Below, piece after piece: positions 21,901-48,470 of a stretch of DNA of 64,000 bases. Origin of the DNA: Bacteroidales bacterium (GTDB lineage: Bacteria; Bacteroidota; Bacteroidia; Bacteroidales; VadinHA17); contig JADGPU010000005.1 in NCBI GenBank assembly GCA_017882305.1, positions 3,797 through 67,796 on the forward strand. Reading direction: 5' to 3'. Below the pieces are notes generated by a model. The model worked only from the letters and a program-made list of their open reading frames with translations, ran no database searches and was not told where the DNA came from. How positions within the stretch are numbered: the stretch's first letter is position 1; every line of letters starts with the position of its first letter. The translations under genes and the position numbers were made by a program.

Positions 21901-21936
21901 AAGATAAAAGTAAAAAGACAAAAGTGAAAAACAACT
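21895..21936 (+). repeat. AAGAYAA heptad element, copy 1
   Basis: AAGATAA AAGATAA AAGTAAA AAGACAA AAGTGAA AAACAAC. The first unit contains the radical-SAM stop codon. Confidence 0.85.
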
Positions 21937-23526: not shown

Positions 23527-23527
23527 T

Positions 23528-24814: not shown

Positions 24815-24849
24815 CAGAAATCAGAAATCAGGAATCAGGAATAAGAATT
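24815..24849 (+). repeat. Heptad array CAGRAAT x5 abutting a start codon
   Basis: CAGAAAT CAGAAAT CAGGAAT CAGGAAT AAGAATT, then T and ATG 24851. Confidence 0.85.
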
Positions 24850-30575: not shown

Positions 30576-30598
30576 AGCAAAATTTTATTATATTTCTT

Positions 30599-30700
30599 TC
30601 TCTGTGACTCTCTGTGTCTTCTCTGTGTAACTCTGTGTAACTGATTTTTAAAGAACTTACACAGAGTTACATTGAGGTTTCACAGAGTTGCACAGAGGTT
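30599..30700. repeat. CTCTGTG word element with an internal 15-bp perfect hairpin
   Basis: CTCTGTGTAA x2. Stem 30626-30640 TGTAACTCTGTGTAA pairs with 30657-30671 TTACACAGAGTTACA (16-nt loop). Then CACAGAGTTGCACAGAGG. Confidence 0.8.
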
Positions 30701-31540: not shown

Positions 31541-31577
31541 AATTTCCTGATTAAGATAATTCTCTTATTAATTTAAA

Positions 31578-31633
31578 GGCGCCAGGCTTGAGGCGTGAGG
31601 CGTGAGGCGTGAGGCGTGAGGCAAGTGGGGTCA
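31578..31633. repeat. Heptad array GGCGTGA (4 perfect and 4 degenerate units)
   Basis: GGCGCCA GGCTTGA (GGCGTGA)x4 GGCAAGT GGGGTCA. Confidence 0.9.
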
Positions 31634-31651
31634 AGTGTAAGTTATTAACAT

Positions 31652-31700
31652 AATGCCCGATGCCTGATGCCTGATGCCTGATGCCTGATGCCCTATGCCT
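31652..31700. repeat. Heptad array GATGCCT (4 perfect and 3 degenerate units), overlapping the GH5 stop codon
   Basis: AATGCCC (GATGCCT)x4 GATGCCC TATGCCT. The stop codon of the minus-strand GH5 gene is 31699-31701. Confidence 0.9.
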
Positions 31701-33032: not shown

Positions 33033-34181
33033 CTATAAAATTCCGTTATCAATCAACCTTGTTATCTCCGTACCTGCCATCAGGAATCCGCCGACACCAT
33101 AGACTTCAGTCATTTCCCTGGTGACACTTTTGGGATCAGCTCCAATAGGTTGGATAAATCCCACCTTCCCGTCGGGCCAAACAGATGTAACCATAGATTT
33201 CCATCCTTTTACTATATACGGAAGATACGTGGCTTTGTCAAGATAACCATTGTTTATACCCCAGGCGATGCCATAAACAAAAAATGCTGTTGCGCTCATT
33301 TCCGGATTTGGATAACTCGCAGGATCCAGAAGGCTTGCATGCCAGAATCCGTCAGCAGATTGTAATTTTAGAAGTTTTGCAGCCATCTTCTTATATATAG
33401 TCACAAAATAATCCTTATGCTCATATGTAGCAGGAAGCTCTCTTATGATAATTGGCAACCCGGCAAACACCCATCCATTGCCCCGGCCCCAGAATACTTT
33501 TGCTCCATTTGCCTCTTTTCTTGTGAAATAATTGGAGTCCCTGAAATAGAGATCTTCATCTTTATCATAAAGATAATCTGTGGTTGCCTTATATTCCTTA
33601 TACATAAAATCAAGGTACTTTTTCTTGCCCGTTACGTTGGCCATTTTTGCCCAAACTGTCGGTCCCATGAAAAGAGCATCGCACCACGACCATCGCTGGG
33701 TTGACCAGTAATTCTCCGTATTTTCAAATTTAAGATCCCCGGTTGCCGGGTCCTTAATTATCTGATCAAGATATGCTTTAATGGGTTTTATCATCTTCTT
33801 ATCCTTATATTTACGATAAAGTTCAATATAAGTCTGACCTATGCAATAATCATCAGCATGATATCTTTGAAGAGGATTCTCTCTGACAAGGTACGACCAG
33901 CCGGTTTTTTCCGATATTCGTTTCAGCCAATCATAATATGAATTATCGCCTGCTATTCCAGCCCACTCAATCATACCAGCGTAAAGTGCGCCATTTGTCC
34001 AGTCAGCCAGATCATGAGTAAGAGGAGTTCTGATCTGCCGGTCGGCAACTGCTTTCAATACAGTTTTGATATCAGATTTATTTATATCTGATTTAAAAGC
34101 AGGTGTTGTTTGCTCCTGTGAAAAAACTAAACTTGAGCAGATTATTAAAATGATTGTCAAAATACTTTTACTGGTTTTCAT
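33033..34181 (-). CDS. Unsaturated rhamnogalacturonyl hydrolase (GH105, YteR/YesR-like)
   Basis: Signal peptide. RWSWCDALFMGP, FWGRGNGWVFAG, ATAFFVYG. Confidence 0.85.
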   Translation of the reverse strand: MKTSKSILTIILIICSSLVFSQEQTTPAFKSDINKSDIKTVLKAVADRQIRTPLTHDLADWTNGALYAGMIEWAGIAGDNSYYDWLKRISEKTGWSYLVRENPLQRYHADDYCIGQTYIELYRKYKDKKMIKPIKAYLDQIIKDPATGDLKFENTENYWSTQRWSWCDALFMGPTVWAKMANVTGKKKYLDFMYKEYKATTDYLYDKDEDLYFRDSNYFTRKEANGAKVFWGRGNGWVFAGLPIIIRELPATYEHKDYFVTIYKKMAAKLLKLQSADGFWHASLLDPASYPNPEMSATAFFVYGIAWGINNGYLDKATYLPYIVKGWKSMVTSVWPDGKVGFIQPIGADPKSVTREMTEVYGVGGFLMAGTEITRLIDNGIL

Positions 34182-34321: not shown

Positions 34322-34351
34322 TTTCGTGATCGTTAACGAAACATTAATGTT
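34322..34351. promoter_or_regulatory. Candidate operator: two adjacent palindromes upstream of uxaC
   Basis: TTTCGT-gatcgtta-ACGAAA (34322-34341) and the perfect AACATTAATGTT (34340-34351), 36-65 nt upstream of ATG 34387. The 11-mer TTAACGAAACA recurs at 41482-41492 upstream of gnd. Confidence 0.3.
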
Positions 34352-34386: not shown

Positions 34387-35784
34387 ATGAAACCATTTAT
34401 TCATAAGAATTTTCTTTTGGGGAATAAAACAGGAAAAAAACTTTATCATAAATATTCTGAGAATCAGCCTATTGTAGATTTCCACTGCCACCTTTCACCT
34501 GCAATGATAGCCGGGGACCGTCAATTTGCCAATCTTACCCAGGCCTGGATGGAAGGCGATCATTATAAATGGAGAGCTATGCGAACAAATGGTATCCACG
34601 AAAAATTTTGTACAGGGAATGCTACGGACATAGAAAAATTTAAGAAATGGGCAGAAACAGTCCCAGCCACAGCAGGAAATCCGCTTTATCATTGGACGCA
34701 TCTCGAACTTACCAGATATTTCAATATAACTGAACTTCTTTCTCCCTCAACAGCTACCATGATCTATGAAAAAGCTTCTTCCCTGCTCGATACGAAGGAG
34801 TTCAGTACCAGATCAATAATACGGAAAATGAAAGTAGATGTAGTCTGTACTACTGATGATCCTACAGATAATCTTGAACATCATCTGAAACTGAAAGACT
34901 CTTTCGAAATCAAAGTTCTGCCAACTTTCCGGCCCGATAATATAATTAAAACAGAGGACCCTGAGAAATTCAAGTTGTACATTCAGAAACTAAAACTGGC
35001 AAGTGGAAATGAGATAAGGAACTTTGATGATCTTCTTGAAGCATTAGATAAAAGACACAAGTTCTTTCATGAAATGGGAGGCAGATTATCTGATCATGGT
35101 CTTGACCATTTTTATTTTGCCACTTTTACTTCATCTGAAATTGACAGAATTTTTAAGAATCTGCTCAAAGGAAAGATCATTTCATCCGAGGAGACTGAAA
35201 AATATAAAACAGCTGTGTTGCTAGAACTCTGCAGACTGAATCATAAAAGAGGCTGGGCTCAGCAGTTTCACGTCGGGGCAATGAGAAATAATAATTCAAG
35301 GATGTTCAGACAAATGGGGGCTGATACAGGCTGGGATTCAATCGGCAATGCCCAGGATGTATTGAAAATATCTAAATTTCTTAACGAACTTGATAATAAT
35401 GACCAACTTACGAAGACGATACTCTATGATCTGAATCCTTCTGATAATGAAATGATGATAACCATGGCCGGGAATTTCAATGACGGTTTATCACCAGCGA
35501 AAGTACAATATGGAGCAGCATGGTGGTTCCTCGATCAGAAATGTGCTATGGAAAAGCATCTGAAGGATATTGCAGCTTTAGGACTATTAAGAAGGTTTAT
35601 CGGAATGGTCACCGATTCACGCAGCTTCCTCTCCTACCCGCGTCACGAATATTTCAGACGTATTGTATGTAATTATGTTGGAGAAGAGGTTGAAAAGGGT
35701 CATATACCTGACGAAGAAGAACTTTTGAAACCAATAATTGAAGGAATCTCATACAGGAATGCGAAGGAGTATTTTGGGTTCTGA
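34387..35784 (+). CDS. uxaC: Glucuronate isomerase
   Basis: MKPFIHKNFLL..PIVDFHCHLSP..DHYKWRAMR..GNPLYHWTHLEL. Confidence 0.92.
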   Translation: MKPFIHKNFLLGNKTGKKLYHKYSENQPIVDFHCHLSPAMIAGDRQFANLTQAWMEGDHYKWRAMRTNGIHEKFCTGNATDIEKFKKWAETVPATAGNPLYHWTHLELTRYFNITELLSPSTATMIYEKASSLLDTKEFSTRSIIRKMKVDVVCTTDDPTDNLEHHLKLKDSFEIKVLPTFRPDNIIKTEDPEKFKLYIQKLKLASGNEIRNFDDLLEALDKRHKFFHEMGGRLSDHGLDHFYFATFTSSEIDRIFKNLLKGKIISSEETEKYKTAVLLELCRLNHKRGWAQQFHVGAMRNNNSRMFRQMGADTGWDSIGNAQDVLKISKFLNELDNNDQLTKTILYDLNPSDNEMMITMAGNFNDGLSPAKVQYGAAWWFLDQKCAMEKHLKDIAALGLLRRFIGMVTDSRSFLSYPRHEYFRRIVCNYVGEEVEKGHIPDEEELLKPIIEGISYRNAKEYFGF

Positions 35785-35814
35785 CCCGATAAACTGATAT
35801 CTAACACATTATAT

Positions 35815-36657
35815 ATGAATGATTTAAATTTAAAAGATAAAATAGCGGTTTTAACTGGCGGGGCAGGAATTATCTGCTCTGCAATGGCTAGATCACTTGC
35901 CGCATATGGTGTTAAAACTGTAATCCTCGACCTCAACAAAGATGCGGCAACTGATGTTGCGAAACAGATTGAAAAAGAGTTTAATACACCATCCATTGGC
36001 GTTTATGCCAGTGTTCTCGACAAAGCCTCCCTGGAGTCAGCAAGAAAAGATATTCATGAGAAGTTCGGACCTGTTGACATACTGGTAAACGGAGCCGGCG
36101 GCAACTCTCCTGCCGCTACTACCGGGGTCGAAAAAATGAATGGCACTGAAGACGAAAACCTTGAAGAAACATTTTTCGGACTTCAGATTGAAGGATTTGA
36201 TAGGGTATTTGACCTCAACTTTAAGGGCACACTTATCCCATCTATGGTTTTCGCAAATGACATGGTAAGGAAAAAATCAGGAGTAATAATTAACATTTCT
36301 TCAATGAACTCATACAGACCCCTGACTAAGATTGCCGCTTATTCTGCGGCAAAAGCAGCTGTTAATAATTTCACACAATGGCTGGCGGTTCATTTTTCAA
36401 AAACAGGTGTGCGGGTTAATGCAATTGCTCCGGGATTCCTTATGACAAATCAGAACAGATTCCTCTTAATTGATGAAAAAACCGGAGACCACACACCAAG
36501 AGGAATGAAAATAATAAATGGCACACCGATGGAACGATATTGTATACCTGAAGAATTAACAGGCACACTTCTCTATCTTGTCTCTGACTTGTCAAAGTTT
36601 GTTACAGGTGTTGTTATACCGGTTGATGGGGGGTTTAGTGCGTATGGTGGTGTATGA
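35815..36657 (+). CDS. SDR-type D-mannonate oxidoreductase / fructuronate reductase (YjmF/UxuB-like)
   Basis: LTGGAGIICSAMA; NGAGGNSPAATT insertion; YSAAKAAV. Confidence 0.7.
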   Translation: MNDLNLKDKIAVLTGGAGIICSAMARSLAAYGVKTVILDLNKDAATDVAKQIEKEFNTPSIGVYASVLDKASLESARKDIHEKFGPVDILVNGAGGNSPAATTGVEKMNGTEDENLEETFFGLQIEGFDRVFDLNFKGTLIPSMVFANDMVRKKSGVIINISSMNSYRPLTKIAAYSAAKAAVNNFTQWLAVHFSKTGVRVNAIAPGFLMTNQNRFLLIDEKTGDHTPRGMKIINGTPMERYCIPEELTGTLLYLVSDLSKFVTGVVIPVDGGFSAYGGV

Positions 36658-36778
36658 GGGATCAGGAGTTCGGCGAAGCCAAACCCGGCAAAGCGGGGAT
36701 AAAAGTATACAGATGGAAATAAACGAGAAAACATATTCTGAATAAGACGAATCAAAGACTAATTACAATATTTAGTAA

Positions 36779-38083
36779 ATGGTAAATGTTATGGTAAAAA
36801 ACGTAATAGTGGCCCAGTCAGGCGGACCCTCGCCGGTTATCAATAGTTCATTACGGGGGATAATTGAAACCTGCCGGATGTTCCCGGACAAATTTGGAAA
36901 GGTATTTGGAGGATGGCACGGCATTGAAGGGGTTTTGAATGAGGAGCTTCTTGATCTGTCAGCTCAGAATGAGCAGGAAATTGCCCTGTTAAGAAACACG
37001 CCTGCAGCCGGAAGTATAGGTACCTGTCGCTATAAGCTTAAAGATAATCAGCAAAAAGATTTCCTGAGGATAATGAAGGTTTTTAAGGTTCATAATATTG
37101 GATACTTTTTCTATATAGGTGGTAATGATTCACAACATACAGCTTTCAAAGTGAGTGAAATGGCAGAGACCAGAGGACTTGACCTTATTGCTGTAGGAGT
37201 GCCAAAAACAATTGATAATGATTTGGGTGACAATGAATTCAAACTTATTGATCACACTCCGGGATATGGAAGTGTTGCCAGGTACTGGTCGCATATTATT
37301 CAGAATGCCAATGAAGAGAATATGGGCTCCGCTCCTGCTGATCCTGTATTGGTCATCCAGGCAATGGGACGGAAAATAGGTTATATTCCTGCTGCTGCAA
37401 GACTTGCAGATCCGGATAGAAATATGCCACTGCAGATCTATATGGCCGAATCAAAGATATCCATCGATAATCTGGTTGATAATGTCAATGATCAGCTGAA
37501 AAAGGATGGAAGATGTATTGTAGTTATAAGCGAGGGGTTTGATGTTGGAAATATCGGAGATGTAAAAGATGCTTTTGATCATACCTCTTTCGGATCGAGT
37601 AAGAATTCTGTATTCCAGATTGTCGTGAATTATCTTAACAGTAAAGGTTTGAAAGCCAAAGGTGCAGCCAGGGGTCAGGTCATGGGGACGGATCAACGGG
37701 ATACAACGGTCTATGCTTCAATCGTCGATCTCGATGAAGCATATAAGGTAGGACAGAAAGCAGTTGAGATAGCTTTATATGAGGGTAATGGCTGGATGGC
37801 CACTATTCTGAGAGAACCTGGTTTTATATATAATGTCAGGTATGATAAGGTCCCCTTAGAGAAAGTTGCACTTTCCGAAAGGACTTTTCCGGAACAATGG
37901 ATTTCTAAAAGCCGTTACGATGTTACAGATGATTTTCTTGCTTACGCCCGACCTCTTATTGGTGAAGACTGGCCTTCAGTCCCAATGATAAACGGGAGAC
38001 AGCGATTTGCGAGGTTCGAAATGAAATTTGCCGGTAAGAAATTGGCTGAATATAAACCTGAAGCATATGAAAAAAGTAAGTAA
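36779..38083 (+). CDS. PfkA-family phosphofructokinase-like kinase (about 430 aa clade, atypical GGNDS motif)
   Basis: VAQSGGPSPVIN, YIGGNDSQ, GVPKTIDNDL, QAMGRKIGYIPA. ATG 36791 is an alternative start. Confidence 0.8.
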   Translation: MVNVMVKNVIVAQSGGPSPVINSSLRGIIETCRMFPDKFGKVFGGWHGIEGVLNEELLDLSAQNEQEIALLRNTPAAGSIGTCRYKLKDNQQKDFLRIMKVFKVHNIGYFFYIGGNDSQHTAFKVSEMAETRGLDLIAVGVPKTIDNDLGDNEFKLIDHTPGYGSVARYWSHIIQNANEENMGSAPADPVLVIQAMGRKIGYIPAAARLADPDRNMPLQIYMAESKISIDNLVDNVNDQLKKDGRCIVVISEGFDVGNIGDVKDAFDHTSFGSSKNSVFQIVVNYLNSKGLKAKGAARGQVMGTDQRDTTVYASIVDLDEAYKVGQKAVEIALYEGNGWMATILREPGFIYNVRYDKVPLEKVALSERTFPEQWISKSRYDVTDDFLAYARPLIGEDWPSVPMINGRQRFARFEMKFAGKKLAEYKPEAYEKSK

Positions 38084-38088
38084 ATAAT

Positions 38089-38970
38089 ATGAACCCTCAA
38101 GAACAATTACTGGCATTAAGGCCTGAGAAAGAGTTTTTCATAGGGATAGATTCCGATGGTTGTGCTTTTGACACCATGGAGATAAAACAGAAAGAGTGTT
38201 TCTGCCCTAACTTCATAAAGTACTTCAGGATGCAGCCCGTTTCAAAATATGCCCGTGAGACCTGGGAATTTGTGAATCTATATTCAACCAACAGGGGATG
38301 CAATCGGTTCCTTGCAGTAAATGAGACTCTCAGACTTCTGGCAACCCGTCCCGAAATAAAAGCCAGGAATTTCACAGTTCCTTCTGCTGCCCCGCTTGTA
38401 GAATGGACAAAGAAGGAGACGAAACTTGGAAATCCGACACTTAAAAAATATGCAACCGAAATAAATGATCCTTTCATTACAATGACACTCGAATGGTCTC
38501 TGAAGGTAAATGAGGATATCAGTAAAATGGTATTCGGAATAACTCCCTTCCCTTTCGTTAAAGAGTGCCTGGAGAAAATAAAGTCGACTACGGATGTCAT
38601 GGTAGTTTCACAGACACCATATGAAGCACTAAAACGTGAATGGGAAGAAAACAGAATCGACCATTTTTTGAGGATGATTGCAGGACAGGAACATGGAACT
38701 AAAGCAGAACATCTTAAATATGCTGCCAAGGGTAAGTACCCTGATGAAAAGATACTGATGATCGGTGATGCAAATGGTGATCTGACGGCGGCCAAATCAA
38801 ACGGAGTCCTCTTCTTCCCGATTAATCCGGGAAAAGAAGAAGAATCGTGGGAAAAGCTTTATAAAGAAGGTCTGGACAGGTTCTTTACAGGAAAATTTAA
38901 AGGCGATTATGAAGAGGAACTGATCAGGGAATTTGAGACTTTTCTACCGGAGCAGCCACATTGGAAATAG
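38089..38970 (+). CDS. HAD-superfamily hydrolase (phosphatase-like)
   Basis: Motif I FIGIDSDGCAFD. Motif IV MIGDANGDLTAA. Confidence 0.75.
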   Translation: MNPQEQLLALRPEKEFFIGIDSDGCAFDTMEIKQKECFCPNFIKYFRMQPVSKYARETWEFVNLYSTNRGCNRFLAVNETLRLLATRPEIKARNFTVPSAAPLVEWTKKETKLGNPTLKKYATEINDPFITMTLEWSLKVNEDISKMVFGITPFPFVKECLEKIKSTTDVMVVSQTPYEALKREWEENRIDHFLRMIAGQEHGTKAEHLKYAAKGKYPDEKILMIGDANGDLTAAKSNGVLFFPINPGKEEESWEKLYKEGLDRFFTGKFKGDYEEELIREFETFLPEQPHWK

Positions 38971-39057
38971 GCGACGGGTTGCAGGCGACAGGTGACAGGA
39001 AAACCTAACCTGTTGCCTGACAACTGACGCCTGACGCCTAAAGCCCGACGCCTATTA
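38969..39057. repeat. Opposed heptad arms AGGCGAC / CCTGACG starting in the HAD stop codon
   Basis: (T)AGGCGAC GGGTTGC AGGCGAC AGGTGAC AGG - aaaacctaa - CCTGTTG CCTGACA ACTGACG CCTGACG CCTAAAG CCCGACG CCT. Confidence 0.85.
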
Positions 39058-39102
39058 AATCAGGTCAGGGAGTTTAAAACAAAACTGAAATTTATATTAG
39101 CA

Positions 39103-40374
39103 ATGATATATTTCAAATCTGGTTCGGAAAATACAGTTCTTGACTCAAAAGATCTTGAATCCGGAATTTTTTCTGCGTTGGAAAAACTTGGAGTCAGAAA
39201 GAAAGTACTTGTTGTTCCTCCCGACTGTACCCGTTTTCATTCAAGAGCCGGTGAACTTACTTCTTATATTTACCGGTATTATAAGGATAGCCTGAAAGAT
39301 ATCCTTCCTGCTCTTGGTACTCACTCTCCCATGACTTACACTCAACTTGACAAAATGTACAAAGGAGTTCCAAAGTCACTCTTTCGAATACATGACTGGA
39401 GAAAGGATGTGGTAACAACAGGTACGATACCTGGTGAATTTGTATCTGATATTACTTCCGGAGCTTTGAACTATTCATGGCCCGCCCAGCTTAACAGACT
39501 TGTTTTCAATGGGGGACACGACCTTATACTATCAGTAGGACAGGTTGTCCCTCATGAAGTTATAGGTATGGCAAACTATAATAAGAACCTTTTTATAGGG
39601 ACGGGTGGACCTGAAGGTATAAATAAGAGTCATTTTATCGGAGCGGTCTATGGCATGGAACGCATTATGGGAAAAGCTGATAATCCTGTCAGATCTCTGC
39701 TTAACTATGCCTCCGCAAATTTTACCAGTCATTTGCCCGTTGTTTATATACATACAGTCATAGGCCGCAATGAAGAAGGAAAGCTTGTGGCAAGAGGACT
39801 TTTTATAGGTGATGATGAAGAAGTTTTCAGACTTGCGGCAGATCTTTCACTGAAGGTTAATTTCAATGTACTTGAAAAACCACTGAAAAAAGTTGTTGTA
39901 TATCTTGATCCTGCAGAGTTCAAAAGCACCTGGCTGGGGAACAAAAGCATTTACAGGACACGCATGGCAATGTCTGATAATGGGGAGTTGATTGTTCTGG
40001 CTCCAGGATTAAAAGAGTTTGGTGAGGACAATGAGATAGACCGACTGATCAGGAAATATGGTTATCGCGGAACGCAGGCTACATTGAAATATCTGAAGGA
40101 GAATGAAGAACTTAATAATAATCTGAGTGCAGCTGCCCATCTGATTCATGGAAGTTCTGAAGGAAGATTCACAATAACTTATTGTCCCGGATATCTCACA
40201 AGGGAAGAGATAGAATCAGTAAATTTTAAATATCATGAACTTAATGATATGTTGAAGAAATTCAATCCAAAAAACCTGAAGGATGGTTTTAATAAAATGG
40301 ATGATGGGGAGGAAATCTACTTTATCTCAAATCCTGCACTTGGACTATGGACGTCTAAGAAACGGTTGGCATAA
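39103..40374 (+). CDS. LarA-like (DUF2088) putative nickel-pincer-dependent 2-hydroxyacid racemase/epimerase
   Basis: VVPPDCTRFHS, ALGTHSPMT and VGQVVPHEVIGMANYNKNLFIGTGG align by eye with the LarA motifs DxTRP, TGxH and PH..G.SGG.K. Confidence 0.65.
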   Translation: MIYFKSGSENTVLDSKDLESGIFSALEKLGVRKKVLVVPPDCTRFHSRAGELTSYIYRYYKDSLKDILPALGTHSPMTYTQLDKMYKGVPKSLFRIHDWRKDVVTTGTIPGEFVSDITSGALNYSWPAQLNRLVFNGGHDLILSVGQVVPHEVIGMANYNKNLFIGTGGPEGINKSHFIGAVYGMERIMGKADNPVRSLLNYASANFTSHLPVVYIHTVIGRNEEGKLVARGLFIGDDEEVFRLAADLSLKVNFNVLEKPLKKVVVYLDPAEFKSTWLGNKSIYRTRMAMSDNGELIVLAPGLKEFGEDNEIDRLIRKYGYRGTQATLKYLKENEELNNNLSAAAHLIHGSSEGRFTITYCPGYLTREEIESVNFKYHELNDMLKKFNPKNLKDGFNKMDDGEEIYFISNPALGLWTSKKRLA

Positions 40375-40396
40375 AAAATATTATTAAATTCATAAT

Positions 40397-41389
40397 ATGA
40401 TAAACTGGGGAATAATTGGATGTGGTAACGTCACAGAAGTAAAAAGTGGTCCGGCATTTAATAAAGTCAGGGACTCACAACTGATTGCCGTTATGCGCCG
40501 AGACGCCTTCCTGGCTGAAGATTATGCCCGGCGACATAATGTTCCAAAATTTTATTCAAAGGCTTCGGATCTCATTAATGACAAGGATATCAATGCAGTA
40601 TATATTGCCACTCCCCCGGAAAGCCATGCTGAATATGCCATTGAAGTGATAAAAGCTCGCAAGCCGGTTTATATTGAGAAACCAATGGCTGTCAGCTACT
40701 CCGAATGCCTTAAAATAAACAAAGCAGCTGAAAAATATCAGGTTCCGGTTTTTGTAGCATATTACAGAAGAGCGCTTCCCGGGTTCCTCCTGGTTAAAGA
40801 TCTTATTGAAAACGGAGGTATTGGAAAAGTACGTTTTTTGCTGATACAGTTATTCAAGGCTCCTTCTACAGATGAAAAGGCCGGAAAACCATCATGGCGG
40901 GTTGATCCTAAAATGTCAGGCGGAGGACATTTCTTCGATCTGGCCTCCCATCAGCTTGATTATCTTGATTTTCTCTTCGGTCCAATTCAGAAAGTCAAAT
41001 CGATAGCGATAAATCATGCAGGGCTTTATAAAGCTGAAGATTTTGTTTCAGCAGAGTTTATTTTTTATAATAATATTGTTGGAACCGGTACATGGTGTTT
41101 CAGCGTATCACCTGATTGCGATCGGGATACTATCGAGATTATTGGAGACAAAGGGTCCATTAAATTCACAACCTTTAGTTTTGAACCAATTGTTCTTACA
41201 AATGAAAATGGACGTCAGGAGTTTATCAATGAACGTCCTGAGCACGTTCAGTACTATCTTATTGAAAAAATAGTTCAATCACTCAATGGGAACGGTGCCT
41301 CTCCGAGTACTGGAATATCAGGAGCCAGAACAAGTAAGATTATGGATGATATTGTGGCGGGATATTATAAAGACAAAAGACAAAAGTAA
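40397..41389 (+). CDS. Gfo/Idh/MocA-family NAD(P) oxidoreductase
   Basis: INWGIIGCGNV Rossmann start; VYIEKPMA motif. The last codons (KDKRQK-stop) lie inside the AAGAYAA repeat. Confidence 0.85.
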   Translation: MINWGIIGCGNVTEVKSGPAFNKVRDSQLIAVMRRDAFLAEDYARRHNVPKFYSKASDLINDKDINAVYIATPPESHAEYAIEVIKARKPVYIEKPMAVSYSECLKINKAAEKYQVPVFVAYYRRALPGFLLVKDLIENGGIGKVRFLLIQLFKAPSTDEKAGKPSWRVDPKMSGGGHFFDLASHQLDYLDFLFGPIQKVKSIAINHAGLYKAEDFVSAEFIFYNNIVGTGTWCFSVSPDCDRDTIEIIGDKGSIKFTTFSFEPIVLTNENGRQEFINERPEHVQYYLIEKIVQSLNGNGASPSTGISGARTSKIMDDIVAGYYKDKRQK

Positions 41390-41404
41390 AAAGACAAAAG
41401 TGAA
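41370..41404 (+). repeat. AAGAYAA heptad element, copy 2
   Basis: AAGACAA AAGACAA AAGTAAA AAGACAA AAGTGAA. The TAA of unit 3 is the stop codon of the Gfo/Idh/MocA gene. Confidence 0.85.
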
Positions 41405-41515
41405 TATACTAATATAGAGAGAATTAGTCCCGCCTGGCGGGATCGGGGGGCAAAAACCAGCCAAGACGAAATGAGCAATATTTAACGAAACAGTTATAAA
41501 TTCAATCTTTTAGTT

Positions 41516-42970
41516 ATGAGCAAATTATCAGATATCGGATTAATAGGTCTGGCAGTAATGGGCGAGAACCTTGTCCTTAATATGGAAAGCAAGGGATTCA
41601 CTGTTTCTGTTTTCAACAGGTCGACACAGAAAGTTGATGATTTCCTCGCTGGAAGAGCCAGTGGAAAAAAAATTATTGGCACTCATTCTATTAAGGAGCT
41701 TGTGGGATCTCTTGAACGTCCAAGAAAGGTAATGCTAATGATCAAAGCCGGAAGTGCAGTTGATGAGATGATAAATACACTCATCCCCTATCTTGATCCC
41801 GGAGATATTATTATTGACGGTGGTAACACTCATTTTCCAGACACCAACAGAAGAACAGCCCTCGTAGAAAGTAAAGGACTTCTATATGTCGGTACCGGGG
41901 TTTCCGGTGGTGAAGAGGGAGCACTACTCGGACCATCAATCATGCCCGGTGGATCAAAAGCGGCATGGCAATTTGTGAAACCAATCTTTCAGGCAATTGC
42001 GGCAAAGGTCGAAGATGGCACTCCATGCTGTGACTGGGTTGGAGAAAACGGTGCCGGTCATTTTGTAAAGATGGTTCACAATGGTATCGAGTATGGTGAT
42101 ATGCAGCTTATTACCGAGGCTTACCAGATTATGAGAGATCTCTTACATATGACTGCAGATGAGATGCACCTCATTTTTAAAGAATGGAATGAAGGAGAAC
42201 TTGACAGTTATCTCATTGAAATAACCCGCGACATACTTGCATATAAAGATTCAGATGGAAAACCCCTCGTGGATAAAATCCTTGACACTGCAGGGCAGAA
42301 AGGAACCGGCAAATGGACTGCTGTTACTGCCCTCGATCTTGGTATTCCACTTACTTTAATCGGAGAAGCTGTCTTTTCAAGGTGTCTTTCTGCATTAAAG
42401 CGCGAAAGAGTGGAGGCATCAAAAATATTGCACGGTCCTGCTCCTGAATTTAATGGAGACAAGGTCAGATTCATTAATGACATAAAAGAGGCCCTCTATG
42501 CATCAAAAATTGTTTCATATGCTCAGGGTTACTCCTTGATGAAAGCTTCCGCCGAAGAATATAAATGGAAACTTAACTATGGAGGTATAGCTCTTATGTG
42601 GCGTGGGGGATGTATAATAAGATCGGCATTCCTGGATAAAATAAAAGAGGCATTTGATAATAATCCTTCCATAACGAACCTCCTACTCGATCCATTCTTC
42701 AAAGATAAAGTTGGAAAAGCGCAGAATGGCTGGAGAAATGTGGTATCTGCTGCTGCAATCAATGGTATCGCTGTTCCATGTATATCAGCGGCACTGGGCT
42801 ATTTTGACGGCTACCGTTGTGAAAAGCTGCCAGCCAATCTCTTACAGGCACAACGAGACTATTTTGGTGCACATACCTACGAAAGGACAGATAAACCAAG
42901 GGGTGAATTCTTCCATACAAACTGGACAGGTCGTGGAGGAACAACAGCTTCTTCAACATATAATGTATGA
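41516..42970 (+). CDS. gnd: 6-phosphogluconate dehydrogenase (decarboxylating)
   Basis: IGLIGLAVMGENLVLN, GGNTHF, GAGHFVKMVHNGIEYGDMQLI, RDYFGAHTYER. Confidence 0.92.
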   Translation: MSKLSDIGLIGLAVMGENLVLNMESKGFTVSVFNRSTQKVDDFLAGRASGKKIIGTHSIKELVGSLERPRKVMLMIKAGSAVDEMINTLIPYLDPGDIIIDGGNTHFPDTNRRTALVESKGLLYVGTGVSGGEEGALLGPSIMPGGSKAAWQFVKPIFQAIAAKVEDGTPCCDWVGENGAGHFVKMVHNGIEYGDMQLITEAYQIMRDLLHMTADEMHLIFKEWNEGELDSYLIEITRDILAYKDSDGKPLVDKILDTAGQKGTGKWTAVTALDLGIPLTLIGEAVFSRCLSALKRERVEASKILHGPAPEFNGDKVRFINDIKEALYASKIVSYAQGYSLMKASAEEYKWKLNYGGIALMWRGGCIIRSAFLDKIKEAFDNNPSITNLLLDPFFKDKVGKAQNGWRNVVSAAAINGIAVPCISAALGYFDGYRCEKLPANLLQAQRDYFGAHTYERTDKPRGEFFHTNWTGRGGTTASSTYNV

Positions 42971-42998
42971 TATCTTTTACTACTAATTAACACTGAAC

Positions 42999-44297
42999 AT
43001 GTCAGAAACTAAGACCGCAGGTAATTACAGATGGACAGTCTGTGCCCTTATCTTTTTTGCAACCACTATAAACTATCTCGACAGACAAGTGATCGGTATT
43101 CTTAAACCATTGCTTGAAAGCGATCTCAATATCGGAGAAGTTGAGTACGGAAATATTGTTACAATTTTCCAATTGTTTTATGGTTTTTCGATGTTACTGG
43201 CAGGACGCCTCATAGATAAATTCGGGACGAAGATCGGTTACGGAATATCGGTTCTACTATGGAGTATTGCAGCAATGGGACATTCACTCGCAAAAGGGGT
43301 TATAGGCTTTGGATTCTGGAGAGGTTTATTAGGTATCAGCGAATCAGGAAACTTTCCTGCTGCAATAAGAACAATTGCCGAATGGTTTCCCAAGAGAGAG
43401 AGAGCACTGGCGACAGGCATCTTTAATTCAGGTGCGAATGTAGGAGCAATAGTCGCCCCTCTTGCAGTTCCGGCAATCGTAATCGCATGGGGCTGGCAGG
43501 CGGCATTTATCATTACAGGTGCTATCGGAATCGTATGGATCATCCTGTGGTTTATCTTTTATGAGTTACCTGAAAAGAAAAGAAAACTTTCATCAGGAGA
43601 ACTTGAATTAATCAAAAGCGATTTGGATGAAAAAAATGAAAGTGAGAAACTTATTCAATGGATTCAGCTTCTCAGATACCGTCAAACATGGATTTTCTTT
43701 ATAGGAAAAGCGTTGACAGATCCTATCTGGTGGTTTTACCTGTTCTGGATTCCCGGGTGGCTCTCAACAGTGAGAGGTGCAGGTCTTGATATTAAATCAT
43801 TTGGACTTCCACTGGTAGTCATTTATTCATCCACAACTATAGGAAGCATAGGCGGAGGCTGGCTTTCATCATATATGATAAGAAAAGGAATGTCACCATT
43901 TAATGCACGAAAATATACAATGTTAATATTTGCTTTACTTGTTTGCCCTGTATTCTTTGCTCAGTCAAACGGGGTAAGTACCTGGGGAGCTGTAGCTCTG
44001 ATAAGTCTTGCAGCTTCTTCACATCAGGCATGGTCGGCTAATATTTTTACTACGGTTTCAGATGCATTTCCTAAAAGAGCTATCAGTTCAGTCACCGGCA
44101 TCGGAGGAATGGCTGGTGCCGTTGGTGGTGCTTTTATTTCAGTTTTTGCAGGGCATATTCTTAACTTCTTTAAAAAGGCCGGTCATGTTGAAACAGGATA
44201 TACCGTTATGTTTACAATTGCTTCCTGCGCTTACATTCTGGCCTGGATCATTATGTATGTATTTGCACCTAAAGTTAAAAAAGTGGTAATTGATTAG
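42999..44297 (+). CDS. MFS transporter, hexuronate (ExuT/ACS-family)-like
   Basis: 12-TM profile. YLDRQVIGILKP and GRLIDKFGTK motifs. Confidence 0.85.
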   Translation: MSETKTAGNYRWTVCALIFFATTINYLDRQVIGILKPLLESDLNIGEVEYGNIVTIFQLFYGFSMLLAGRLIDKFGTKIGYGISVLLWSIAAMGHSLAKGVIGFGFWRGLLGISESGNFPAAIRTIAEWFPKRERALATGIFNSGANVGAIVAPLAVPAIVIAWGWQAAFIITGAIGIVWIILWFIFYELPEKKRKLSSGELELIKSDLDEKNESEKLIQWIQLLRYRQTWIFFIGKALTDPIWWFYLFWIPGWLSTVRGAGLDIKSFGLPLVVIYSSTTIGSIGGGWLSSYMIRKGMSPFNARKYTMLIFALLVCPVFFAQSNGVSTWGAVALISLAASSHQAWSANIFTTVSDAFPKRAISSVTGIGGMAGAVGGAFISVFAGHILNFFKKAGHVETGYTVMFTIASCAYILAWIIMYVFAPKVKKVVID

Positions 44298-44321
44298 TAT
44301 AAGCATTAAGGATTATAATTT

Positions 44322-45377
44322 ATGCCTCTAAAAAAGTCAAGGATAAAGGATATCGCGAGGATGGCTGGTGTTTCTATAGGTACGGTAGACCGCGTAATAC
44401 ATGACAGAGGTGAGGTATCAGAAAAAACCAGGCTGAAGGTTCAGAGAATTCTGAAAGAGACCAATTACTCCCCTAATGTATTGGCACAGGTATTGAAATC
44501 AAAAAAACGATTTCATCTTGTTTCACTTCTTCCTGCACCAACCGAAGACAATTCTTTCTGGAAAAAGCATCCACTAGGTATGATCAGGGCTATTGAAGAA
44601 CTCGATCCCTTTCCTGTTACACTCAGTCAGGTAACATTTGATATGCAGAGCGAAGATGATTTTCAAAAGAAAACCAGTATCGTTTTAGATCTCAAGCCTG
44701 ATGGAGTACTTCTTGCACCTATATTCAAGTCAGAATCTGTTGCATTTTGTTCACGGCTTCAGAAAGAAAAGGTTCCTGTTGTTTTTATCGACGGTTATAT
44801 TGAAAATACTGATTTTCTGGCATATATCGGTGAAGATATCTTCCAGAGCGGAAGAGTTGCCGGACAACTTATCGATATGGTAACTCCCGAAGAAAGTGAT
44901 ATACTCGTTGTAACAATCGCAAGAAATATCCGGAATGTCCATCACCTTACCAACCGCACTGAGGGATTTCTGAGTTATTTCCGTAAATCAGGTAAAAACA
45001 AAGGCAGGAAGATTATCCTTAATATTCCTGACCACTCTACCGATGGTGTAAAAAGGGTCATCGATACGGTGTTTCTTGAAAATCCCGGAATAGGTTCAAT
45101 TTTTATTACAGGGTCAAAATCATACCTCATTGCTTTATACCTGGAAAATAAAGGTTTAAAATCAATCAATCTTATCGGATATGATCTTCTGGATTCAAAT
45201 GTCAGGTTTTTAAAATCTGGGACCACCAGGTTTCTGATCGGTCAGCGACCTGAGGAACAATCATATAAGGGGATAAAGAAATTATTTGAATACCTCTCAC
45301 TTCATAAAATTCCCGACAAAATCGAATACCTTCCTGTTGATATAGTAACATCTGAAAATGTCGACTTTTTTTTATAA
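44322..45377 (+). CDS. LacI-family transcriptional regulator
   Basis: N-terminal HTH IKDIARMAGVSIGTVDRVIH plus a periplasmic-binding-like sugar domain. Confidence 0.9.
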   Translation: MPLKKSRIKDIARMAGVSIGTVDRVIHDRGEVSEKTRLKVQRILKETNYSPNVLAQVLKSKKRFHLVSLLPAPTEDNSFWKKHPLGMIRAIEELDPFPVTLSQVTFDMQSEDDFQKKTSIVLDLKPDGVLLAPIFKSESVAFCSRLQKEKVPVVFIDGYIENTDFLAYIGEDIFQSGRVAGQLIDMVTPEESDILVVTIARNIRNVHHLTNRTEGFLSYFRKSGKNKGRKIILNIPDHSTDGVKRVIDTVFLENPGIGSIFITGSKSYLIALYLENKGLKSINLIGYDLLDSNVRFLKSGTTRFLIGQRPEEQSYKGIKKLFEYLSLHKIPDKIEYLPVDIVTSENVDFFL

Positions 45378-45380
45378 ATT

Positions 45381-46634
45381 ATGAAAATTCTTGGTAAATA
45401 TTCGATTGGCCTGGGTGACAGATTCGGTCACCAGGGAAGTGCTCAATTAAAAGCAATTATTACAGCATCTGAAAAAGGCATCGACATTACACCTGTCTGG
45501 AATAAGTCAAATCGTGAACATATTATAATAGGCTCCCACCCTCTTGATGTCAGGAATGAAGCAGATTCGGCAATAAGAAGCGCAGGATTTAAAAAACCCT
45601 ATTTTGTTGATGCTGATCATATAAACATTGATACAGTTGATCGTTTTATAGAATGCTCCGATTTTTTTACAATTGATGTTGCATCTTATATTGGGAAGAA
45701 AGCCGATGAGGAAGAGGTCGTTGAATTCCTGTCAGATGTTGAGAAGTACACAGGTGAGCTGAAAATCACCAGAACAAAATTGTCATTCAAAACTTCAAAA
45801 TCTCAGATAAAACAAATTGCAGAAAAGTACCTTTTTGCTATAATAAAGGCACGGGAAATATACAGAAAAATTGAAAAGGCTAAGGGAATTGGAAATTTTA
45901 TCACTGAGGTTTCAATAGATGAAGTGGCTCAACCCCAGACTCCTATGGAACTCTTTTTCATCCTTAGAATGCTGGCTTCTGAAAATATACCTGTACAGAC
46001 AATTGCTCCGAAGTTTTCAGGAAAGTTCAATAAAGGAGTTGATTATGTTGGTGATCCTCTGTTGTTTGCTAAGGAATTTGAATCTGACATTCTGGTTATT
46101 GACTATGCTGTTAAGGAATTTAATCTGCCTGATAACCTGAAGATGAGCATTCATTCAGGATCGGATAAGTTCGCTCTTTACCCGCACATAGGTTCAATAA
46201 TTAAAAGATATGACAAGGGAATACATCTGAAAACTGCCGGTACCACCTGGCTCGAAGAGGTGATCGGTCTTGCCGAATCAGGTGGTGAAGGTCTCGATTT
46301 TGTCAAAGAGATTTATATTAAATCGCTGGAAAAAATCGAAGAGTTATGTGCTCTATATGCCGATGTGATTGACATTAAAGTGTCTTTACTCCCTGCAAAA
46401 CAGGAAGTTTCTGAATGGACCAGCGATAAGTTTTCAGGTTCAATAAAGCATATACCTGGAAATTCTGATTATAATCCAAACATAAGGCAATTGATACATG
46501 TTGCGTATAAGCTTGCAGCTTTACAGATGAAGGATTATTTCAGGTTACTTGAAAATAATGAGCAAGCCGTTTCGAAGTGCGTTTATGAAAACATCTATGG
46601 CAGACATATCTGCCCGTTATTCGATATAAAATAA
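45381..46634 (+). CDS. Tagaturonate/fructuronate epimerase-like protein (UxaE-like)
   Basis: SIGLGDRFGHQG, WNKSNREH and FVDADHIN match what I recall as the UxaE signature (GDRxG, S.RE, DADH). Called from memory, not from a search. Confidence 0.55.
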   Translation: MKILGKYSIGLGDRFGHQGSAQLKAIITASEKGIDITPVWNKSNREHIIIGSHPLDVRNEADSAIRSAGFKKPYFVDADHINIDTVDRFIECSDFFTIDVASYIGKKADEEEVVEFLSDVEKYTGELKITRTKLSFKTSKSQIKQIAEKYLFAIIKAREIYRKIEKAKGIGNFITEVSIDEVAQPQTPMELFFILRMLASENIPVQTIAPKFSGKFNKGVDYVGDPLLFAKEFESDILVIDYAVKEFNLPDNLKMSIHSGSDKFALYPHIGSIIKRYDKGIHLKTAGTTWLEEVIGLAESGGEGLDFVKEIYIKSLEKIEELCALYADVIDIKVSLLPAKQEVSEWTSDKFSGSIKHIPGNSDYNPNIRQLIHVAYKLAALQMKDYFRLLENNEQAVSKCVYENIYGRHICPLFDIK

Positions 46635-46640
46635 GGATCA

Positions 46641-48470
46641 TTACTCCAGAGTTTTTGAGCCGGTGATAGGTTTTGCTTCAGTCTGATGCAAATCAAATAC
46701 CATGATTTCGTTCATTCCTTCTCTTAGCCAGGGGGAAGGACAATAAAGTCTTTTTTGCGGTCCGATATTCCAGTAACGTCCAAGATTATGTCCATTAACC
46801 CAAACAATTCCTTTGGTGTAGTTTGAAACATCAATAAAAGTGTCAGAATATAAATTTCCTTCTGCTCTTGAAAGAACAAAATTGCCCTTGAAAAATACCC
46901 CCGGTTTCTTAAGTGATTTTCCTGAGGATCGGAGGTCCCAGATAAATTTTTTGTCCATCGGAAGATTATATACCTGCCAGTTCACTAATGTTGTTCCGTT
47001 AAGGGTCACACTGTCAGTAATACCTTTTCTGTCAATAAGATTCTTTCCAAAATTTATATGTCCCATCGCTTCAGCTAAAATCTCAAGCACAGGTGCTTCC
47101 ACATTGCTCTCTGGTACATCAATTGAGTTTATTCCCTCTCTTCTGTCGAGTTTACCGATATAATTGCCATTCAGAAAAACCGTTGCATAATCATGAATAT
47201 CAGTTATGGTAAGCTTCCCGTTTTTAATTCCGGTAAGCTCAGTTTTATATAAAATGAAACCATGGTACTGACCATAAGCTTCAAATGATTTAGGTTGAAC
47301 TGAGCTGACAGGTTGAGGCAGATTATCCCACACAGTAGTAAAAGGTTGCATTTCCACCGGTGTGATTTTAATTGCAGGAACCGAATCCGGAATTGGGGGA
47401 AGCATTTTCCCTTTAGGAAGATATGAGGCAATAAGTCTCCTGAGAGCAAAATACTTTGGAGTAGGTTGACCCTGTTCATTAACAGGAGCATCGTAGTCGT
47501 AACTAGTGACATCAGGTTCGTAACCTTTACCCCCGGAATTGGCACCTGCCGTATATTCGAAATTAGTTCCACCATGAATAACATAAAAATTAAACGACTT
47601 CTTGTTATCCATCAGGAATTTCACCTCTTTTAACAATTGTACAGAGTCGGGTTTTGCCCACTTCTCACCCCAGTGAGTAAGCCAACCGGGGTATGTCTCA
47701 CTGCTGAAAACAGGTACTCCTGGATTTATCTTATTAGCAAGTGCAAAATCATCTGAAGAACTTCCGGAATCAAGACCTACAGCACTCCCCGGAAGAGATC
47801 CGGTTTCCAGCATCTTTGTTGTCGGACCATCACCTGTGAATGTTGGTACATTAATACCATTGGAAGCCCAGACTTCTCTTAACCTTAACATGTAATTCCT
47901 GTCATTTCCGAAACTGCCATACTCATTTTCAATCTGTAACATCAGTAAAGGTCCGCCCCTTGTTATAAGATAAGGTTTAATCACTTCAGACAGTTTTGCT
48001 ATATATCGTTCTGCAGCAGCCATATATCGTGGATCCATACATCGTAATTTAATATCCGGGATTCGTAACAGGTAAGGAGGAATTCCACCAAGATCCCATT
48101 CAGCACAAACATACGGACCTGGTCTGAGGATTAGCCACATCCCCTCTTCCTGCAAAATTTTAAAAAATTCGCCCAGATTATGATTCCCCGTACTGAAATC
48201 GTAAATTCCCTCTTCAGATTCATGGTAATTCCAAAAAATATAAGCCGCTATTGTATTGCAGCCCATGGCTTTTGCCATTTGAATTCTGTGTCGCCAGTAT
48301 TCAACAGGTATCCTTGCAGGATGCATTTCACCGCTTATTATCTGAAATGGCTGCCCGTCAAGAAGGAATTCTGATGTTCCTAATTTGAAAGTATGCTTTG
48401 GTTTCTGAGCCTGAGCTGGGAAAGTGGTAATTATAAGAAATCCAATGAATAAACTTAAAATATTCCGCAT
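46641..48470 (-). CDS. Beta-galactosidase, glycoside hydrolase family 35
   Basis: Signal peptide. RPGPYVCAEWDLGGIPPYL, QIENEYGSFG. Confidence 0.9.
   Translation of the reverse strand: MRNILSLFIGFLIITTFPAQAQKPKHTFKLGTSEFLLDGQPFQIISGEMHPARIPVEYWRHRIQMAKAMGCNTIAAYIFWNYHESEEGIYDFSTGNHNLGEFFKILQEEGMWLILRPGPYVCAEWDLGGIPPYLLRIPDIKLRCMDPRYMAAAERYIAKLSEVIKPYLITRGGPLLMLQIENEYGSFGNDRNYMLRLREVWASNGINVPTFTGDGPTTKMLETGSLPGSAVGLDSGSSSDDFALANKINPGVPVFSSETYPGWLTHWGEKWAKPDSVQLLKEVKFLMDNKKSFNFYVIHGGTNFEYTAGANSGGKGYEPDVTSYDYDAPVNEQGQPTPKYFALRRLIASYLPKGKMLPPIPDSVPAIKITPVEMQPFTTVWDNLPQPVSSVQPKSFEAYGQYHGFILYKTELTGIKNGKLTITDIHDYATVFLNGNYIGKLDRREGINSIDVPESNVEAPVLEILAEAMGHINFGKNLIDRKGITDSVTLNGTTLVNWQVYNLPMDKKFIWDLRSSGKSLKKPGVFFKGNFVLSRAEGNLYSDTFIDVSNYTKGIVWVNGHNLGRYWNIGPQKRLYCPSPWLREGMNEIMVFDLHQTEAKPITGSKTLE

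Follow-up and report, generated by a model that had tools for sequence, protein, structure and literature searches.

A hexuronate locus of a Bacteroidales bacterium links a group-18 LarA homologue to gnd and probably leads into the oxidative pentose-phosphate pathway

RESULTS

A ten-gene hexuronate locus

We examined a 64-kb stretch of DNA (the window) from contig JADGPU010000005.1 of an uncultured Bacteroidales bacterium of peat and permafrost, in which ten genes lie head to tail on the plus strand between positions 34387 and 46634, separated by gaps of 3–132 bp. Every open reading frame (ORF) of at least 150 amino acids in the window was scanned against curated models. The run carries genes of hexuronate breakdown, a LarA homologue that we predict to be a hexonate 2-epimerase and gnd, the gene for decarboxylating 6-phosphogluconate dehydrogenase (Table 1). 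The same gene order is found in close relatives (loci L001-L004, L085 and L086), and its core recurs across phyla; the arrangement is therefore not due to chance. The closest relatives of the window DNA are metagenome-assembled genomes of Bacteroidales, and the DNA itself is contained in permafrost, peat, wetland and soil metagenomes.

The original prediction, read from the letters alone, had named seven of the ten genes (uxaC, the short-chain dehydrogenase/reductase (SDR), the LarA-like gene, gnd, the MFS transporter, LacI and UxaE), and curated models and family profiles place all seven where it had put them. It missed the other three, a gene of the phosphofructokinase (PFK) family, a HAD hydrolase gene and a Gfo/Idh/MocA gene, and it overlooked the upstream flank, where kduI, a kduD-like SDR gene and a GH88/105 hydrolase gene lie on the other strand. 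Its list of absences holds for the whole window: we found no mannonate or altronate dehydratase (UxuA, UxaA), 2-keto-3-deoxygluconate (KDG) kinase (KdgK), 2-keto-3-deoxy-6-phosphogluconate (KDPG) aldolase (Eda) or gluconate kinase (GntK) among the scanned ORFs, nor the cofactor-synthesis proteins LarB, LarC and LarE. It had also seen no candidate for the kinase step, which stands for GntK and passes over the PFK-family gene inside the locus. That protein and one histidine kinase are the only kinase-fold proteins in the window.

Table 1. Features of the locus and its flanks, with the models or profiles that identify them
Feature	Coordinates	Strand	Evidence
KduD/gluconate-5-dehydrogenase-type SDR	29781-30575	-	PRK07097 425 bits (cut-off 369); KduD models 218-249 bits
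kduI	30704-31540	-	NF002091 430 bits
GH5	31699-32919	-	PF00150
GH88/GH105-family unsaturated uronyl hydrolase, divergent from uxaC	33033-34181	-	PF07470 307 bits
Imperfect palindrome, candidate operator	34322-34341		TTTCGTGATCGTTAACGAAA; 46 bp upstream of uxaC, within the GH88-uxaC spacer
uxaC, glucuronate/galacturonate isomerase	34387-35784	+	NF002794 607 bits (cut-off 387); PF02614 670 bits
SDR-type fructuronate reductase (D-mannonate oxidoreductase, YjmF/UxuB type)	35815-36657	+	PRK08277 385 bits (cut-off 281)
PFK-like (PFKl), PfkA family with pyrophosphate (PPi)-type signature	36779-38083	+	PRK14072 'PPi-PFK' 367 bits (cut-off 273); PF00365 125 bits
HAD_2 hydrolase, divergent HAD subfamily I, long helical cap	38089-38970	+	PF13419, E 5e-8
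Intergenic hairpin with inverted heptamer repeats, between HAD gene and LarA homologue	38966-39056	+	-45.2 kcal/mol, z = -7.2
LarA homologue, group 18, predicted hexonate 2-epimerase (GntE type)	39103-40374	+	NF052594 657 bits (cut-off 500); PF09861 28.1 bits (cut-off 23.3)
Gfo/Idh/MocA NAD(P) oxidoreductase	40397-41389	+	PF01408, PF22725, PF02894
gnd, decarboxylating 6-phosphogluconate dehydrogenase	41516-42970	+	TIGR00873 779 bits (cut-off 427)
MFS transporter, anionic-sugar (ACS; ExuT/DgoT) family	42999-44297	+	TIGR00893 238 bits (below cut-off); PF07690
LacI-family regulator	44322-45377	+	PF00356, PF13407
UxaE, tagaturonate/fructuronate 3-epimerase, short form	45381-46634	+	PF16257 192 bits; E 2e-25 to 6IL9
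GH35 beta-galactosidase, convergent with uxaE	46641-48470	-	PF01301 346 bits

The UxaE of the window matches the solved Cohnella enzyme (6IL9) and covers positions 80-472 of its family profile, lacking some 80-90 N-terminal residues. For the Gfo/Idh/MocA protein, IolG and 1,5-anhydrofructose reductase are the best named matches, both far under their cut-offs.

The LarA homologue belongs to group 18

By its sequence, the window's LarA homologue is a member of group 18 of Desguin 2020, the clade of tested D-mannonate/D-gluconate 2-epimerases, and its signature residues equal the group-18 row of that classification. The original prediction had pointed out that the LarA family includes a gluconate/mannonate 2-epimerase; this is correct, and the window protein falls in the tested clade (PMC7583248, PMC11770544). 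An exact look-up of the protein returned no record. The family itself is already named in NCBIfam, as 'nickel-dependent putative hexonate epimerase'.

Compared with the ten group-18 members listed, the protein shares 43-67% identity, with 67% to the member from Melioribacter roseus, 60% to that from Tannerella forsythia and 43-60% to the eight others; a diatom member of the group is 55% identical. Residues D41, R44, H74, H151, K161 and H177 are invariant in the group-18 alignment that includes it. H151, K161 and H177 are spaced by 10 and 16 residues, and a His, a Lys and a His are aligned with them in 4NAR, the nearest solved structure (E 1e-37, local alignment). H74, H151, K161 and H177 are spaced like H108, H174, K184 and H200 of the lactate racemase LarA, so that H151, K161 and H177 match its catalytic His, its cofactor-tethering Lys and its nickel-binding His. 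The protein thus has both catalytic histidines, and D41 and R44 are its Asp and Arg for the carboxylate of the substrate.

The group-18 lineage now has one assayed member. LarAH15 of Phytophthora nicotianae, assigned to group 18, epimerizes D-mannonate with a Km of 9.4 mM and a kcat of 111 s-1, and its cloning primer encodes MATLLFAEG (PMC11770544). The encoded peptide matches the start of a group-18 sequence from P. infestans, MTLLFAEGS, which is the link between the assayed protein and the lineage. GntE1 and GntE2, of the sister groups 19 and 20, share this mannonate/gluconate 2-epimerase activity (PMC7583248). Desguin et al. call group 18 itself only a 'putative hexonate epimerase'.

A sister LarA clade was observed in metagenome contigs (L087, L098, L103, L110-L112, L120 and L123). 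Its members are 26-31% identical to the window protein, score 160-190 bits on the group-18 model and are flanked by a HAD gene, gnd, a PFK-like gene and a UxuB-like SDR gene.

The epimerase is linked to gnd and to a distinct PfkB paralogue across phyla

One genome per species was scanned for the epimerase, which yielded 80 loci from Bacteroidota, Ignavibacteriota, Verrucomicrobiota, Planctomycetota, Acidobacteriota and a few other phyla. In each, ORFs were called and matched to the window proteins, the remainder were clustered, and neighbors were counted within 10 kb of the epimerase gene. A UxuB-type SDR gene is present in 57/80 loci and gnd in 53/80; among the 44 loci whose flanks are complete, 32 have gnd. 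A PfkB-family kinase gene follows in frequency (47/80), then uxaE (36/80; median of 416 aa in the related cluster), uxaC (32/80), LacI (28/80), PdxB (27/80) and Gfo/Idh/MocA (23/80, each time after the LarA homologue). The genes of the classical route are less common, with a KdgK-clade PfkB in 15 loci, eda in 13 and uxuA in 7. The most frequent order runs SDR, PfkB, LarA homologue, (Gfo), (PdxB), gnd, and gnd usually lies one to three genes downstream of the epimerase gene and in the same direction. The strength of this gnd link supports 6-phosphogluconate as the end product. Consequently, a reading in which hexuronates pass through mannonate and (phospho)gluconate to ribulose-5-P is well supported by how widely the epimerase gene is accompanied by gnd, the SDR gene, uxaE and uxaC.

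The PfkB gene directly adjoins the epimerase gene in 35/80 loci, and verrucomicrobial genomes retain this pair alone. Cultured carriers of such an adjacent PfkB are Mariniphaga sediminis SY21 (L071) and Saccharicrinis sp. FJH62 (L021). The LarA-adjacent PfkB clades share only about 30% identity with the PfkB that accompanies eda in these loci. Against the section of a curated model that covers KDG kinase, the eda-linked PfkB scores 505 bits and the LarA-adjacent PfkB only 173-244 bits. No gluconate kinase GntK, whether of the FGGY or the P-loop type, was seen in any of the 80 loci. ORFs of about 480-510 aa among the unlabelled neighbors were checked as FGGY or P-loop candidates and rejected, being transporters or unrelated proteins. 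Because the LarA-adjacent PfkB clade is distinct and GntK is never seen, the usual partner kinase of group 18 would be a KdgK-like PfkB paralogue rather than GntK.

The gene for PdxB, the 4-phosphoerythronate dehydrogenase (453 bits; cut-off 434), stands either immediately behind the LarA homologue or ahead of gnd in its loci, which span several phyla (L029, L033, L037, L040, L042, L047-L049, L053, L054, L057, L058, L060-L062, L064, L066, L068, L070-L072, L075, L077, L080, L081 and L084). The PdxB-LarA link also holds where gnd is not adjacent. This neighbor may serve to protect Gnd against 4-phosphoerythronate; alternatively, it may be a sign that the intermediates are phosphorylated 2-hydroxyacids.

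A PFK-like protein and a HAD hydrolase form a module with gnd

In the window, and in loci L001-L005, L009, L027, L085 and L086, the place of PfkB between the SDR and the epimerase is taken by the PFK-like gene and the HAD gene; in L018 the start of the locus is cut off, so that the HAD gene alone is visible. The nearest solved structures to the PFK-like protein are the structural-genomics 'PPi-PFKs' 3K2Q and 3HNO (E 2e-72). With these short PPi-PFKs it shares the fold, the GGND and PKTIDND motifs that carry the PPi-type Asp104/Lys124 signature, and the catalytic residues Asp127, Asp129 and Thr125. Of the residues that bind F6P (fructose-6-phosphate), MGR (M169, G170, R171), E222, R243 and R252 are present, whereas R162 is replaced by Pro and H249 by Thr. 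We considered the change of Arg162 to Pro as a sign of a non-phosphorylated substrate and rejected it, since this position, like that of H249, varies across the whole short-PFK family.

Unlike other short PPi-PFKs, the protein belongs to a compact subfamily with insertions of its own, a 'NEEN' motif near the sugar-binding region and a fixed association with HAD and gnd. In a search of 1.8 billion representatives, full-length members of the subfamily have 50-65% identity to the window protein and everything else has at most 42%. A metagenome scan seeded with the subfamily retrieved 42 loci of the subfamily itself and 38 with a generic PFK. A HAD gene neighbors the PFK-like gene in 17/42 of the former, gnd in 16/42, a UxuB-like SDR gene in 13/42 and a LarA homologue in 12/42; each of these neighbors occurs in 0/38 generic loci. 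Many of the contigs are short, so the subfamily counts are underestimates, and the LarA homologues among them come partly from the sister clade that scores 160-190 bits. Several recurring 'clusters' in high-GC metagenome contigs were rejected as antisense artefacts. Orders of PFK-like, HAD, gnd, (SDR) and zwf were also found without any LarA homologue, and the three genes PFK-like, HAD and gnd are therefore a conserved module in their own right.

The HAD gene starts 5 bp after the PFK-like gene and is probably translationally coupled to it. Its product is predicted to be a divergent subfamily I phosphatase or phosphomutase, in which motifs I-IV are invariant among ten homologues from three phyla: DSDGC (D21-S-D23), S174, K205 and GDxxGD (G226-D227-x-x-G-D231). 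A search of the PDB gave no sequence relative, the best match being 2HSZ, at E 0.06 when the single sequence was the query and E 0.011 when the alignment profile was used. AlphaFold from the single sequence reached a pLDDT of only 33; AF2 with a shallow alignment modeled the Rossmannoid core at pLDDT 80-98 and the cap poorly. Foldseek with this model returned generic HAD-IA matches only, with TM-scores (normalized to query length) of 0.34-0.51, and gives no substrate inference. The JGI name for the protein is 'phosphoglycolate phosphatase-like'.

The proposed pathway

We consider it probable that the operon encodes a 'GntE shunt', under LacI control, by which the isomerase pathway feeds the oxidative pentose-phosphate pathway. 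The MFS carrier would import glucuronate or galacturonate, which UxaC would isomerize to fructuronate or tagaturonate, and UxaE would turn tagaturonate into fructuronate, so that the SDR could reduce fructuronate to D-mannonate. The group-18 LarA homologue, carrying the nickel-pincer cofactor, would then invert C2, either from mannonate to gluconate or from 6-phosphomannonate to 6-phosphogluconate, with the 6-phosphate supplied by a kinase. Finally, Gnd would convert 6-phosphogluconate to ribulose-5-P, releasing the original uronate carboxyl carbon as CO2 and recovering the reductant spent by the SDR.

Gene identities, catalytic residues and linkage across phyla are observed, and we infer from them the substrate specificities, the kinase and the order of phosphorylation and epimerization. 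The acid may be epimerized and then phosphorylated, or phosphorylated and then epimerized, as in extracts of Lactobacillus suebicus. The millimolar Km of all tested GntE enzymes on free mannonate is compatible with a phosphorylated acid as the true substrate.

Several points weigh against this pathway. The sole assayed member of the group-18 lineage, LarAH15, is eukaryotic, and a millimolar Km for mannonate in the tested relatives means that the native substrate could differ. The window contains neither a GntK nor any proven hexonate kinase, and the genes for synthesis of the epimerase's cofactor are likewise absent from it. The Gfo/Idh/MocA, HAD and PFK-like genes have no role in the simple scheme.

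Readings of the PFK-like protein

The PFK-like protein may be an ordinary, reversible, PPi-dependent kinase of fructose-6-phosphate (F6P) or sedoheptulose-7-phosphate (S7P), co-regulated with gnd, with the HAD protein in a proofreading role and the hexonate kinase encoded elsewhere; we regard this as a realistic account that stops short of being probable. Ribulose-5-P would be pulled through the non-oxidative branch of the pentose-phosphate pathway into glycolysis, possibly by a sedoheptulose-bisphosphate bypass of transaldolase, and the HAD protein would clear away 4-phosphoerythronate, a purely inferred substrate that potently inhibits Gnd. The intact catalytic and phosphate-binding residues, the PPi-type signature and the PPi-PFKs as nearest solved and curated relatives all argue for it, as do the modules of PFK-like, HAD and gnd, at times with zwf, that exist without a LarA homologue. 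Methanotrophs have enzymes of this kind as well. In clostridia and Entamoeba, the S7P kinase activity of PPi-PFKs replaces transaldolase (PMC7029132, PMC12203962), and phosphatases of the HAD and other types shield 6-phosphogluconate dehydrogenase from 4-phosphoerythronate (PMC6449344). The JGI label of the HAD protein and the frequent presence of pdxB, a consumer of 4-phosphoerythronate, beside LarA and gnd point the same way. However, on this account no gene of the window would serve the phosphorylation step, and it does not explain why a HAD gene should so often lie directly beside the LarA homologue (L037, L056, L065, L098, L103, L120, L126 and L128); the generic outcome of the HAD fold search also speaks against it.

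Alternatively, the PFK-like protein may itself be the missing kinase, using PPi to phosphorylate D-mannonate or D-gluconate at C6, or D-fructuronate at C1, a possible but doubtful role. Fructuronate is the carboxylate analogue of F6P, and the LarA homologue would act on the phosphorylated acid or just before its formation; the orphan activities of L. suebicus, 'mannonate kinase / 6-phosphomannonate 2-epimerase', would thereby gain their genes. The PFK-like gene is the only kinase-fold gene of the 64 kb besides the histidine kinase, and it occupies the exact slot, between the SDR and the LarA homologue, that the LarA-adjacent PfkB fills elsewhere. On F6P, enzymes of the PfkA and PfkB families are known to stand in for each other. 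The co-occurrence of the subfamily with gnd, HAD, SDR and LarA homologues, which generic PFK loci lack entirely, its specific insertions and 'NEEN' motif near the sugar-binding region, and the absence of GntK from all 80 LarA loci also favor this role. It is opposed by the retention of two arginines that bind the 6-phosphate of F6P, Arg243 and Arg252, and by six loci of close relatives (L007, L008, L012, L013, L019 and L022) in which the same operon comes without any kinase, so that a kinase encoded elsewhere is normal. Moreover, the module is also seen in company with zwf where no LarA homologue is present; there, 6-phosphogluconate would arise from glucose-6-phosphate and no hexonate kinase would be needed. 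The known substrates of PfkA-family enzymes are sugar phosphates only, F6P and S7P (PMC12203962).

We think it unlikely that all three parts of the most specific version hold, namely that the PFK-like protein is the first PfkA-type PPi-dependent sugar-acid kinase, the LarA homologue a 6-phosphomannonate 2-epimerase and the HAD protein a dedicated pathway phosphatase or mutase. If true, this version would, together with the LarA-adjacent PfkB paralogues, identify the genes of the two orphan activities that were measured in L. suebicus in 2020.

The classical KDG route

The original prediction had set this route in place of the classical KDG route. That part does not follow: kduI and the kduD-like gene adjoin the operon, and a fair minority of related loci hold uxuA, kdgK and eda next to the LarA-gnd core. 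Since the products of kduI and the kduD-like gene yield KDG, KdgK and Eda are expected elsewhere in the genome, and the epimerase/Gnd route probably runs beside the classical route rather than in its place. The reduction of the whole case to that route, in which the Ashwell enzymes UxuA, KdgK and Eda carry the hexuronate flux, gnd is a housekeeping gene and the LarA homologue serves another hexonate (by salvage of gluconate or mannonate, or by epimerization of idonate, altronate or a galactonate-type acid), draws on the adjacent kdu genes, on the eda, KdgK-clade and uxuA neighbors counted within 10 kb of the LarA-gnd core (for example in L014, L017, L020, L037, L042, L066, L068 and L070), on the millimolar Km of the tested GntE enzymes and on the merely 'putative' name of group 18, but we judge it improbable, because the gnd-epimerase linkage in at least five phyla goes far beyond housekeeping coincidence, UxaE and a mannonate-forming SDR without UxaB or UxaA funnel both uronates to mannonate, the tested GntE substrate, and the window has no uxuA.

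Regulation and intergenic repeats

The ten-gene run appears to be one LacI-controlled hexuronate utilization operon, given its single direction, its short gaps, the palindrome upstream of uxaC and the absence of terminator-like sites from every intergenic gap of the run. The palindrome is the sole match to the pattern TTCGT-N8-ACGAA in the window, and an identical or near-identical copy lies 40-72 bp upstream of uxaC in L001-L004, L006, L010, L013, L017, L019, L085 and L086. It is a plausible candidate operator for the LacI regulator of the locus. A scan for sigma-70 promoters was uninformative (40 sites against 36 expected). The promoter type of Bacteroidota differs from the one scanned.

The hairpin between the HAD gene and the LarA homologue is built from tandem 7-nt and 14-nt repeats and is not followed by a U-tract. 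Two more hairpins (30598-30700 and 31577-31700) likewise consist of tandem heptamer blocks, then inverted copies, with no U-tract; two of the three reach -45 and -46 kcal/mol (z about -7 to -8) and the third has a z of -3.5. These structures look like repetitive extragenic palindromic (REP)-like elements or unusual terminator or stabilizer structures. Tandem 7-nt repeats also occupy many other spacers (62224-62287, 24815-24847, 21894-21934, 41369-41400 and 63209-63241; for example AGCAACA x9 and AAAGACA-type units) and seem to be a genome-wide habit.

Flanking genes and other features of the window

The GH35 neighbor of uxaE is also present in L001, L002, L005, L012, L018, L019 and L022. The GH5 gene between kduI and the GH88-family gene occurs in the window and in L086 and is absent from the otherwise syntenic L001-L004. 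The SDR at 29781-30575 passes the NCBIfam equivalog cut-off for 'gluconate 5-dehydrogenase' and not that for KduD; its genomic context is nevertheless that of KduD.

Elsewhere, the window encodes a phosphate-selective porin and, between 3718 and 19529, three FG-GAP/ASPIC (CRTAC1-like) proteins, among them a protein of 1186 aa that contains TPR repeats. Three other genes are interleaved with these; they code for periplasmic binding proteins, a protein resembling a beta-propeller/di-haem cytochrome c peroxidase and one that carries a hydrazine-synthase-alpha-like domain. At 23017-24130, two overlapping ORFs each match one half of the profile of the YeeE/YedE sulphur-transport family (positions 174-309 and 10-158). 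The gene is either split or frameshifted, and rhodanese genes come next.

DISCUSSION

The route to ribulose-5-P that the original prediction had read from the locus is supported by the clade of the epimerase and by its linkage to gnd, the SDR, uxaE and uxaC. It is an already published proposal and no new wiring: the route is either the GntE route of Thermotoga (2012) or the phospho-variant of L. suebicus (2020), not a new pathway. What is new is the absence of GntK from the window and from the 80 loci, the PfkB paralogue beside the epimerase, and the module of PFK-like, HAD and gnd.

The Thermotoga precedent named in the original prediction is real. The GntE route was proposed by Rodionova et al. 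2012, according to the summaries of that work in PMC6978723 and PMC7583248, and the activity of the GntE2 of Thermotoga maritima (LarAH20) has been shown (PMC7583248). The T. maritima cluster combines UxaC, UxaE, a fructuronate reductase, GntE (LarAH20, with 4NAR as closest solved relative), GntK and Gnd. Its genes are co-directional, as here, and it shares with the window the uxaC, uxaE, reductase, LarA-type 2-epimerase and gnd families. In contrast, the epimerase of the window is from group 18 rather than group 20, its operon has no FGGY-type GntK and contains the PFK-like, HAD and Gfo/Idh/MocA genes in addition, its regulator is of the LacI type, and its host is a mesophilic or psychrotolerant Bacteroidales bacterium.

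In extracts of L. suebicus, the conversion of mannonate to 6-phosphomannonate and on to 6-phosphogluconate was measured, and the genes were not identified (PMC6978723); no later mention of 6-phosphomannonate was found in the literature searched. The upper pathway of UxaC, UxaE and UxuB, the exit through Gnd and the redox-neutral conversion of uronate to ribulose-5-P are common to both systems. The order of steps, phosphorylation and then epimerization, was measured there without genes, whereas here the proposed pathway is read from genes alone; downstream, L. suebicus uses phosphoketolase. LarAH15 of P. nicotianae falls in the same LarA subgroup as the window protein, which has identical signature residues, but it is a eukaryotic enzyme and its Km of 9.4 mM for mannonate is compatible with another physiological substrate.

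The Ashwell pathway of Escherichia coli, Bacillus and Bacteroides proceeds through UxaC, UxaB/UxaA or UxuB/UxuA, KdgK and KdgA/Eda. The locus shares with it UxaC, the fructuronate reductase step, an ExuT-like carrier and the neighboring KduI/KduD branch, and differs in that its window has no dehydratase, KDG kinase or KDPG aldolase.

The epimerase-gnd core is widespread, occurring in Bacteroidota, Ignavibacteriota, Verrucomicrobiota, Planctomycetota and Acidobacteriota, and never with a standard gluconate kinase in our survey. The LarA-adjacent PfkB paralogue and the PFK-like/HAD pair are cloneable candidates for the steps of mannonate phosphorylation and 6-phosphomannonate epimerization, activities that are relevant to engineered pectin fermentation. 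The uronic acids of pectin, hemicellulose and microbial exopolymers form a large carbon pool in peat and thawing permafrost, the habitat of the organism. There, the KDG route would deliver pyruvate and triose-P (glyceraldehyde-3-P), whereas the predicted epimerase/Gnd route would, in a redox-neutral manner, form pentose-P and set the carboxyl carbon free directly as CO2; the choice between the two would consequently alter fermentation balances and CO2 yield.

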